Shown: positions 3,001 through 6,000 of the stretch, piece after piece
How positions within the stretch are numbered: the stretch's first letter is position 1
Layout of the letters: every line of letters begins with the position of its first letter
Source: a virus
Lineage: Duplodnaviria > Heunggongvirae > Uroviricota > Caudoviricetes
DNA: 8,105 nucleotides
IMG/VR virus record: IMGVR_UViG_2654587685_000008
Direction: 5' to 3' (one strand)
Position numbers: made by a program

Positions 3001-6000
3001 CATAAATCTCATCGATTTTATGTTTGCATGTTTCTGATTGTGATGTATTTAAAATGGCTCTTTCTCCTTGGGTACAGGAGTTTATAACTTCTTTCAGTAT
3101 TTGTTTTTGGTCTTCTGGGGATGTTCTTTGTCCATTGAATGCGTAAGATATCCTGTCTTTTGTTTTGAAAAGTGGCATGGTTATATTTTTTGTATGCTGG
3201 AGGTCAACACAAAGAGCTATTGCCTGAGTATTTAGTATGTCCGGATTATGGGAGTAAGTTGATCTTTTCAAAGCATTAGCACTTGCTGATGCCCCTTCAT
3301 ATGGATTTTGATGAAATAATAGATTTAGTATGTTTACGATGAATAAAGACATCATTTGTGGTGGTGTGCCTTTCTCAAGAGAGCGCATGATTGCTCCCGA
3401 TAAAGAGGACATCAGACTTAATCCTTGTGTTAATACCCGCTGGGTGGTTTTAAAGGCCGCTTCTTGCGATATAAATCTCTGAGCAGAATTTGGGTTATCA
3501 GAAGAACCATGTTTATAAGCTTTATACCATGAGTCACCTAATATAGCTAAGGCCAATGGTATATCAGCATAACTCACTCCCCTACCTATAGTTCTTACTA
3601 TGCTACCTGTTTTAACTGCTCCATTAAGCATTAACAGTGGTGACATGGTTAGTAATGTACTTGTTAAACATAGAGTAAATCGTGCTATAACCGAACCTGT
3701 TATTTTTTTATTACTTATACAATACTTAACTTCATCTATTAGTTTAGGATATTGATAGAATATTGTTGGTGCATGAAATAAAGTTGCTGATAGTAAATCA
3801 CCAAGTATGCGTACCTGGGTTATATCTAGTGATAATACATTACTTAAGAATGCTTCTGTATTTATTGTTGGAGAAGGTGATGTATATAAAGATGGTTGTT
3901 GAGACTGTGAAGGTGATTTGTTATAGTCGCCATTAAAAAATAATGCCTGTATGAGCAAGTGAATGCTGATTCCGCCTCCGGCTCTGAACGCATATGGAAG
4001 TATCTGTTCGATTTTATTGTGTATGGCCATATAGGCTTTATAAAAACATCCTGACTGATTATATACCTGATGATATTGATCGTTCAGAACTCTCATAAGA
4101 TGGAGAACAGTTTCTGCACTCTCATTCTCTTTTGGTATAATTTCATGAATGATGCTGTCTAGTTGATATTTTTGCTTGCATGTTAGGATTTTTGTAATTC
4201 TTTCATCGATTTCAATGCATATTGAATTATTTTTATCGGATAATAACAAATCATTTTCCTGTGTATTTGTTTGTATCTCTTGTGGGATATTAATTACCAC
4301 ATCCGTACATGTTCTATCCACCTCATTTGTCTTTATGTTGTCAAGAAAATCATTTAACGTCAGTTGAGAACCCAATTCATTAATGTAGTCCAATGATGAC
4401 GTAGAAGAGCTATTATCAAGAAAATCGTTCAGAGTGAGCTCGGAGTCGTTTCTTGTTATCGGATATACATTTGTGGAAGCGGCTAATTTAATACTCCGGT
4501 TGCTGGAGGTAGAAGCTGTTGGTTCAGAGGTTGACGAACACTGCATGTCAATGCATACATAACCTTTATTTGAAGTTGAATTTGGAATCAAGTTTCCTCC
4601 TGAATTAATGGTTTTCCATAATACTAACTATTGATAAAAATATTTTGCATTTCATTAAAATAAAAAATCCCATGGAAAATATTTTTTGTTAGTTATTACA
4701 TACAGCACATCAGGTCGTCAATATAGTCTAACTATAGTTATCACTAAAAACTTGCCTCGATTTTAGATTTTTCCAGTATTTGTAGATATTGCACTGAACA
4801 CCGAATACGTAGCAGAGGGTGTCTACACGATAACGTGCTATGAGCTACCATGTTGTCGAAAAATTGTTTAGTGAGTATGACATCAGGAATGTGGTGGTCT
4901 GTTTTAATATTTCTATTTCTATTTCTATTTCTATTTCTATTTCTATTTCTATTTCTATTTCTATTTCTATTTCTATTTCTATTTCTATTTCTATTTGTTG
5001 TGATTTTTCTTTAGTTCATGTATTTCGATTTGTTTCTGAATTATCGGGGGTAGTGTCTTCCCTTTTCCCTGAGGCTTATCATGCAGTTATTTTCGCCATC
5101 TTGGTATTGTGGAAATACCGACATCCATAGCTTTGGTGAGCTCTGTTCAGGTGGCCAAATTCAGAAAACCATTACGGAGGAAGAAGGCGATGGCTAAACC
5201 AGCGCGAAGACGATGTAACCGTAAAAGAGAAGATTTAACTGTTAAAAGGATATTTGAGTTACTAAGTTTCGATAAATCTACCGGGGTATTTAGATGGAAA
5301 GTTCCCACTCAGGGAAGGATAGCATTAAATAGTGTTGCTGGAACTTTTGATTCCAACGGTTATTCAATGATCATGATAGATGGGCGTAGATATAAAACTC
5401 ACGTCTTAGTTTTTTACATAACTCATAATCGTTGGCCTGCTGGTCAAATTGACCACGTTAATGGAATTAGGACCGACAATAGGCCAGAAAATTTAAGAGA
5501 ATGCCTGCCAATAGAAAATTCAAGAAATATAAGGATCCGAAAGAATAGCAAATCAGGTTGCAGAGGGGTTACTTGGCACAAACGACAGAAAAAATGGAAT
5601 GTTAGGCTAGGATTCCATGGCAAGAGTAAACACTTCGGATGCTTTGATGATCTGGAGTTAGCGGTACTAGTTGCTGAAGAAGCCCGAGATAAGTATTACG
5701 GTGATTTTTCCGGCAACGAAAGGAGCACTTATGCGAATCTATCGAAGGAAATGTAAATGTTGCAATGAATGGTTTATACCAAAATATCAAAATCAATATT
5801 GGTGTAATGAGATTTGTGGAACCAAGATAGCACTCGAACGACGAAGTAAAGAACGCGAAAAAGCGGAAAAAGCAGCAGAGAAGAAACGACGACGAGAGGA
5901 GCAGAAACAGAAAGATAAACTTAAGATTCGAAAACTCGCCTTAAAGCCCCGCAGTTACTGGATTAAACAAGCCCAACAAGCCGTAAACGCCTTCATCAGA

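Follow-up and report, generated by a model that had tools for sequence, protein, structure and literature searches.

A hypervariable hexanucleotide tract in a lambdoid prophage is the Escherichia coli typing locus VNTR-9 and lies within a dead IS911-family relic

The DNA analysed here is a stretch of 8,105 nucleotides (hereafter the window) from the virus record IMGVR_UViG_2654587685_000008 (Caudoviricetes), which is the nin region of a lambdoid prophage. Between a minus-strand cargo gene and an HNH endonuclease gene it carries a perfect TATTTC microsatellite. This tract is already known: it is VNTR-9 (also called O157-9, Vhec4 and TR1), a long-known hypervariable marker used in MLVA, the typing of variable-number tandem repeats at multiple loci, to fingerprint pathogenic E. 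coli. Sequence comparisons indicate that the tract is contained in a dead, internally deleted relic of an IS911-family (IS3 family) insertion sequence (IS), which lies on the minus strand at approximately positions 4730-5164 and forms the right edge of a low-GC island. They also indicate that the VNTR-9 locus of the window is of the non-O157 form, which is free of IS30 and retains the ancestral left flank. A first-pass annotation of the window had proposed the tract as a possible phase-variable switch for its neighbours. The reading that we strongly favour is that the tract is a neutral microsatellite, VNTR-9 in an IS911 relic, that varies by replication slippage and is no switch for either the cargo gene or the HNH gene.

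The tract was detected by Tandem Repeats Finder as an array at 4908-4996 with a period of 6, 14.8 copies of the consensus TATTTC, 100% matches, 0% indels and a score of 178; the runner-up array in the window scored 54. The raw sequence shows 14 complete TATTTC units followed by TATTT, which reads as (GAAATA)n, or AAATAG, on the minus strand. The fourteen-unit tract of the first-pass annotation is therefore real, and the distances given there (about 320 bp to the cargo gene and about 190 bp to the HNH gene) are correct, since by open reading frame (ORF) coordinates the tract lies 316 nt from the cargo start codon and 193 nt from the annotated HNH start at 5190. Its composition is 83% A+T, and the plus strand has no G and 15 C in 89 nt. 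Because all bases past the first unit are fixed, a chance origin of a perfect 89-nt array of period 6 in 8.1 kb is ruled out. An assembly artefact was also considered and rejected, the same tract being present in hundreds of complete genomes.

The identity with VNTR-9 follows from the repeat unit, the flanks and the published typing primers. The TR1 locus described in Irish O157 isolates has the unit AAATAG and the forward primer ACTGCATGATAAGCCTCAGG (PMC2246123 Table 2), the VNTR-9 forward primer is GCGCTGGTTTAGCCATCGCCTTCTTCC (PMC3321953 Table A1), and TR1, Vhec4, O157-9 and VNTR-9 are one locus (PMC3768571; PMC3321953). The unit of TR1 matches that of the window, as AAATAG is TATTTC reverse-complemented and rotated. 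Both forward primers have exact sites in the window (Table 1), and no such matches were obtained in 200 shuffles. The O157:H7 strain Z1768 has all four primers in the expected arrangement around (TATTTC)14, followed by HNH, NinG, phosphatase and Q, and the right flank in O157 genomes is 99.6-99.7% identical to that of the window. For the VNTR-9 and TR1 reverse primers, no site was found in the window at three or fewer mismatches.

These reverse primers have no site in the window because both anneal in IS30, which the locus of the window lacks. In strain Z1768 a truncated IS30 stops 14 bp left of the tract (4198-5014 of locus L005; likewise in L008 and L009), and the VNTR-9R and TR1R sites of O157:H7 are both within it, left of the tract. 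There all left-flank DNA beyond the 14 bp, the prophage's entire left arm and the cargo gene included, has given way to the IS30. The VNTR-9 reverse primer is itself IS30 sequence; under IS30 transposase annotations it was found in 3236 genomes of the 5426 from E. coli, in as many as 23 places. As the IS30-borne reverse sites are missing, the standard O157 primer pairs would not amplify the locus of the window, which would be scored as a "null allele". Null alleles at VNTR-9 reached 31.7% among German O157 isolates (PMC3321953), and some of the reported null alleles could stem from the location of the reverse-primer sites in IS30.

The DNA that surrounds the tract was compared with the IS911 copy of phage Sf6, used with its annotated numbering, which was found through distant blastn matches of the right flank. 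The minus strand of the window aligns with this IS911 in four collinear blocks, with E values down to 9e-29 (Table 1): the inner part of the left inverted repeat (IRL), an upstream part of orfA' that runs into the tract, the 3' end of orfA' with the beginning of orfB', and an end that resembles the right inverted repeat (IRR). IS911 nt 34-145 and 458-1198, the latter comprising most of orfB, are deleted from the relic. The upstream part of orfA' has an in-frame stop, and its frame differs from that of the part past the tract; the A AAA AAG (A6G) frameshift motif of IS911 is lost, the relic reading AAAACAG. Both ends are incomplete, where the outer ~12 nt of IRL are unrecognisable and the IRR-like end is without the terminal TGAAGTGG.

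Translation of the minus strand reveals OrfA remnants, AMDVGISTIPRW...QKQIEIHELKK in one frame and QQ(IE)nILKQTTTFLMSYSLNN in another, and the frame-joined peptide is 54% identical to residues 27-98 of IS911 OrfA (E 3e-24). The corrected OrfA' fragment was not recognised in Pfam, since its helix-turn-helix part is deleted. In the plasmid collection, 2393 records with an IS3/IS911 family transposase annotation match the relic at ~74% identity; a single match at 90.8%, in a record of 1.4 Mb, is suspected to be a chromosome fragment with the same locus. In most cases the relic occurs once per genome. The first-pass annotation had placed the tract between divergent genes, and this agrees with the gene annotation; the DNA there, however, is a decayed insertion-sequence remnant and not a plain spacer.

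The alignment with IS911 also suggests a source for the repeat. The tract aligns to ATTGAAATGGAGAATGAAATA of IS911, which reads ATT GAA ATG GAG AAT GAA ATA (I-E-M-E-N-E-I), codons in the leucine-zipper region of OrfA. Within it GAAATG GAGAAT GAAATA form three imperfect hexamers at the position of the tract, directly upstream of the A6G motif, and the tract looks like a proto-repeat of this kind that has expanded. We hypothesize, as the simplest history, that the right end of the cargo island received an IS911-type element, that this element then died and lost internal segments, and that point changes would have rendered the three near-hexamers identical. Since then, replication slippage (slipped-strand mispairing) would lengthen or shorten the array by one or a few 6-bp units, in a non-coding, unstructured and AT-rich sequence whose length polymorphism would be selectively neutral. 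No earlier report that links IS911 with VNTR-9 was found in the open-access papers searched, and on that search the origin of VNTR-9 in an IS911 relic seems to be unreported. The suggestion that the tract marks the insertion junction of the cargo holds only in part: the relic is at the right edge of the island 2307-5176, but ~170 bp of relic separate the tract from each of its ends. The IS30 junction 14 bp from the tract in O157:H7 is a later event.

Table 1. Positions of the tract, the primer sites, the IS911-family relic and neighbouring features in the window
Feature	Position	Strand	Basis
Perfect hexanucleotide microsatellite (TATTTC)14+TATTT = VNTR-9 / O157-9 / Vhec4 / TR1	4908..4996	.	Tandem Repeats Finder; TR1 unit AAATAG in PMC2246123; allele counts
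TR1 forward primer ACTGCATGATAAGCCTCAGG, exact site	5068..5087	-	Primer from PMC2246123 Table 2
VNTR-9 forward primer GCGCTGGTTTAGCCATCGCCTTCTTCC, exact site	5179..5205	-	Primer from PMC3321953 Table A1
Decayed, internally deleted IS911-family relic, orfA' read right to left	4730..5164	-	blastn against Sf6 IS911; plasmid matches; OrfA identity
Inner IRL, 24/24 identical to IS911 nt 10-33	5141..5164	-	blastn
orfA' upstream part (~OrfA residues 27-84) running into the tract; IS911 nt 146-318, 73%, E 2e-27	4974..5145	-	
orfA' 3' end (ILKQTTTFLMSYSLNN), lost A6G site and first part of orfB'; IS911 nt 298-457, 75%, E 9e-29	4768..4928	-	
IRR-like right end; IS911 nt 1199-1249, 75% identity	4730..4779	-	blastn
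Low-GC island (cargo gene, AT-rich spacer, IS relic) in place of Sf101-type ninX-ninF	2307..5176	.	blastn against Sf101; GC profile
Cargo gene, 590 aa, left neighbour of the tract	2819..4591	-	ORF and RefSeq annotation; PHROG 9230
ninF end, ribosome-binding site and first ninG codons; lambdoid backbone, right island boundary	5177..5218	+	97.6% identity with Sf101, HK544 and others
HNH_3+AP2 endonuclease gene, right neighbour of the tract	5190..5756	+	Pfam; PHROG 99; RefSeq annotation

Variation in tract length was counted between isolates, from assemblies. With positions 4600-5205 as the megablast query, the locus was present in 524 of 5426 complete E. coli genomes. Both flanks match in 245 of them, with ~6.8 to 14.8 copies among the matches listed and 23.8 in one genome. 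In ~279 genomes, mostly O157:H7, homology starts at the tract, and the start of the alignment shifts by multiples of 6 nt (309, 315 ... 369 in the query), which gives ~4.8 to at least 15.8 copies. The loci that were fetched have 4, 6, 7, 8, 11, 14, 14, 17, 17 and 23 units between nearly invariant flanks, and their alleles are pure, apart from one TGTTTC unit in one allele. In 29 prophage contigs from IMG/VR the tract has 4-16 units, a few of these arrays being interrupted by TGTTTC or CATTTC. Records annotated as O111, where the locus is at a near-equal coordinate (1.694-1.698 Mb), have 6.8, 7.8, 8.8, 10.8 and 14.8 copies, while a single short allele is common to all 10 of the 10 O145 records.

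These results bear out the first-pass annotation in its claim that the tract expands and contracts, with 4-23 units among related prophages and variation inside single serotypes; unit number, compared across related genomes as had been proposed there, is clearly not invariant. A similar picture has been published for 202 German O157 isolates, in which 15 alleles spanned 6-23 repeats and the diversity index was 0.90 (PMC3321953). Copy numbers have also been reported by clade, and O157-9 is still part of a 17-locus Japanese scheme (PMC10062581). No mutation rate for O157-9 was found in the open-access papers searched, and a pattern made of the tract plus the left flank had no match in 185,579 species-representative genomes.

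We then weighed whether the length of the tract matters to its neighbours. As a phase-variable or rheostat-like cis element, it would alter promoter geometry, UP-element or H-NS binding, or the number of regulator sites according to the number of units, and so tune the cargo gene and/or the HNH gene. The high polymorphism of tract length would suit such a role, as would the 83% A+T content and the location less than 320 bp from two start codons in a low-GC island; low-GC islands are usually silenced by H-NS. However, a consensus scan of 4400-5300 on both strands found no sigma-70-like promoter, against 3.5 expected. A relaxed scan gave only 8-10/12 matches, none with a -35/-10 spacing that is altered by unit number. 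The only one of these that touches the tract, a weak 8/12 promoter-like match on the minus strand at the left edge, speaks for the role in so far as it uses a repeat unit as its -35; but its spacing is constant, because the repeat unit itself is the -35 element. Nor can unit number shift a reading frame, 6 being a multiple of three. The tract is, moreover, inside an IS pseudogene, at distances of 316 and 193 nt from the two start codons, and its lengths are broad, apparently unimodal and not two-state, the ten O145 records having one length. Such a broad, unimodal distribution looks like the one that drift under slippage predicts.

The most telling evidence against a switch comes from O157:H7. 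Here the cargo gene is deleted and only 14 bp of the left flank remain, and yet the tract persists beside IS30 and varies as elsewhere, with 4 to 17 or more units. The repeat is thus not stably linked to the cargo gene, whereas its linkage with the HNH gene is kept. Taking into consideration that: (i) the unit is of 6 bp, (ii) no promoter was found, (iii) the tract lies in a pseudogene, and (iv) it varies independently of the cargo gene in O157:H7, the phase-variable role put forward in the first-pass annotation is unsupported and we consider it improbable. We infer instead that tract length is neutral. A quantitative effect in cis, which the composition of the tract brings to mind and which would operate by Rho-loading polarity on HNH-ninG-Q, by H-NS silencing or by modulation of the cargo leader RNA, has an equally small chance of being right.

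An action at the RNA level is less probable still. On the plus-strand early-right transcript, (UAUUUC)n might serve as a rut-like Rho-loading site whose length sets the polarity on HNH-ninG-Q when N antitermination is missing, or (AGAAAU)n in a minus-strand cargo leader might bind the distal face of Hfq. What suggests this is the composition of the tract: in addition to the absence of G and the 15 C in 89 nt, UC recurs each 6 nt, the minus strand consists of 29 consecutive A-R-N triplets, and no structure is predicted for the RNA of either strand (minimum free energy 0). The tract would also be in untranslated RNA within the nin region, and the nin region of lambda is known for terminators that are overridden by N. 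This is, however, an argument from composition alone; no promoter was found that puts the tract in a cargo leader, and an origin in a dead IS together with free variation is the expectation under drift. A search of Rfam (E of 1 or less) returned only a spurious plant miRNA match elsewhere in the window.

It is barely credible that the tract codes for (Ile-Ser)n in a real small protein: an ORF of 96 aa does exist at 4840-5130 on the plus strand, and PGAP calls a hypothetical protein there in some genomes, mainly those with long alleles, but we rejected it as a gene, since it is antisense to the IS911 orfA pseudogene whose homology explains the sequence, has no Pfam match, is altered in its downstream frame by a 1-nt insertion right of the tract in other alleles (GTGGTTTTTTC versus GTGATTTTTC), and in O157:H7 has its start codon and N-terminus replaced by IS30, its annotated boundaries varying by genome. 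Different short "hypothetical proteins" are annotated over or beside the tract according to allele length (540-794 in locus L007, 542-724 in L011 and 3501-3617 in L003). Such short ORF calls look like artefacts of a repeat that holds frames open.

Some observations weigh against the reading of the tract as a neutral VNTR-9 microsatellite born in an IS911 relic. Alleles with three or fewer units, which would show the unexpanded ancestral state directly, were not found in IMG/VR. No intact IS closer than ~74% was found among plasmids that would give the exact sequence of the parent element at the proto-repeat. Neither of the published reverse primers has a match in the window, and the identity with VNTR-9 is carried by the right flank, the 14 bp of left flank and the unit. 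Finally, the plus strand of the tract is transcribed whenever the early-right operon is read through, and a (UAUUUC)n RNA that is free of G, unstructured and has UC each 6 nt might conceivably influence the loading of Rho or the action of RNA-binding proteins.

The locus can be set beside several known systems. With VNTR-9 as it occurs in O157 it shares the unit, the right flank with both forward-primer sites, 14 bp on the left, the gene order HNH-ninG-phosphatase-Q and the polymorphism; it differs in that O157:H7 has IS30 left of the tract, whereas the window keeps the rest of the relic and the 590-aa cargo gene. The likeness to IS911 consists of the collinear inner IRL, orfA, start of orfB and IRR, at ~74% DNA and 54% OrfA identity; in contrast to IS911, the relic has two internal deletions, stops, frame changes, no A6G and degenerate ends, and is neither a mobile element nor an active MITE (miniature inverted-repeat transposable element). 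In contingency loci, such as the 7-bp repeats upstream of hmw1/hmw2 in Haemophilus influenzae or the TAAA repeats upstream of nadA in Neisseria meningitidis, the repeats adjoin or overlap a mapped promoter or regulator site and expression depends on the number of units. The tract resembles these as a perfect, slippage-variable repeat of a short unit upstream of genes on horizontally acquired DNA. Here, however, no promoter was found, and the repeat is in a pseudogene 190-320 nt off the genes and outlasts the loss of one neighbouring gene. The O157 panel also contains VNTR-3, -17, -19, -25 and -37, used as neutral typing markers, which likewise have a high diversity index and 2-23 copies of a 6-bp unit (PMC3321953); several of these are inside annotated ORFs, whereas VNTR-9 is in a prophage IS relic and is often absent.

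The practical significance of these findings is modest. O26, O111, O145 and other prophages also carry the locus in an intact, polymorphic form, on which the O157 reverse primers cannot work; with a reverse primer sited in conserved left-flank sequence, such as 4850-4900, the marker could be used in non-O157 strains too. The tract is useful as an epidemiological marker because its length polymorphism is, as we read it, neutral. Traced to the imperfect hexamers of orfA, it would be a concrete case of a bacterial microsatellite born in a dead mobile element. If, as is unlikely, tract length did have an effect on the neighbouring genes, it would be a rare instance of simple-sequence-repeat control in E. 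coli, and the marker would act as a slippage-driven expression rheostat; to our knowledge, expression control by simple-sequence repeats is not established in this species.

The gene order in the window is P, ren, NinB, a Dam-type methylase, NinE, the minus-strand cargo gene, the tract, the HNH_3+AP2 endonuclease, NinG, the NinI phosphatase and Q. GC content drops from ~0.50 to 0.28-0.40 across ~2300-5850. In a blastn comparison of the window with phage Sf101, the backbone match stops at 2306 past NinE, returns for 42 nt at 5177-5218 and resumes at 5815. These breaks point to two insertions, the cargo island at 2307-5176 and the HNH gene within the 5' end of ninG, and the short backbone stretch between them serves here as the start of the HNH gene.

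The protein encoded by the cargo gene had no match in Pfam, NCBIfam, PADLOC or PDB sequences, and its sole match is PHROG 9230, of unknown function. The gene is low in GC (0.28-0.39), and the protein has a Ser/Thr-rich N-terminus and contains several hydrophobic stretches. The gene is also found in the Stx1 phages AU6Stx1 and SH2026Stx1 and in prophages of O26, O111 and O145 strains, and its direction of transcription opposes that of the phage early-right operon.

Between the tract and the HNH start, the plus strand has a weak terminator-like hairpin (5046-5061 or 5046-5062) with a T-rich run after it, the only terminator-like site in 4400-5300 (two overlapping calls against 0.3 expected). The HNH_3+AP2 gene sits within the 5' end of ninG and borrows the ninG ribosome-binding site and about the first 10 codons (MAKPARRRC). 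An imperfect 20-bp tandem repeat is found at the point of insertion (5208-5248). From 5731, ninG has a new 5' part that is low in GC and recoded, with backbone homology back only at 5815. The insertion resembles a free-standing homing endonuclease whose flank has been co-converted. Further to the left, the stretch between ren and ninB (880-1160) has an unusually high GC skew of 0.33-0.35 and short ORFs only, and RefSeq annotates a 68-aa hypothetical protein in it (1353-1559 of locus L001).

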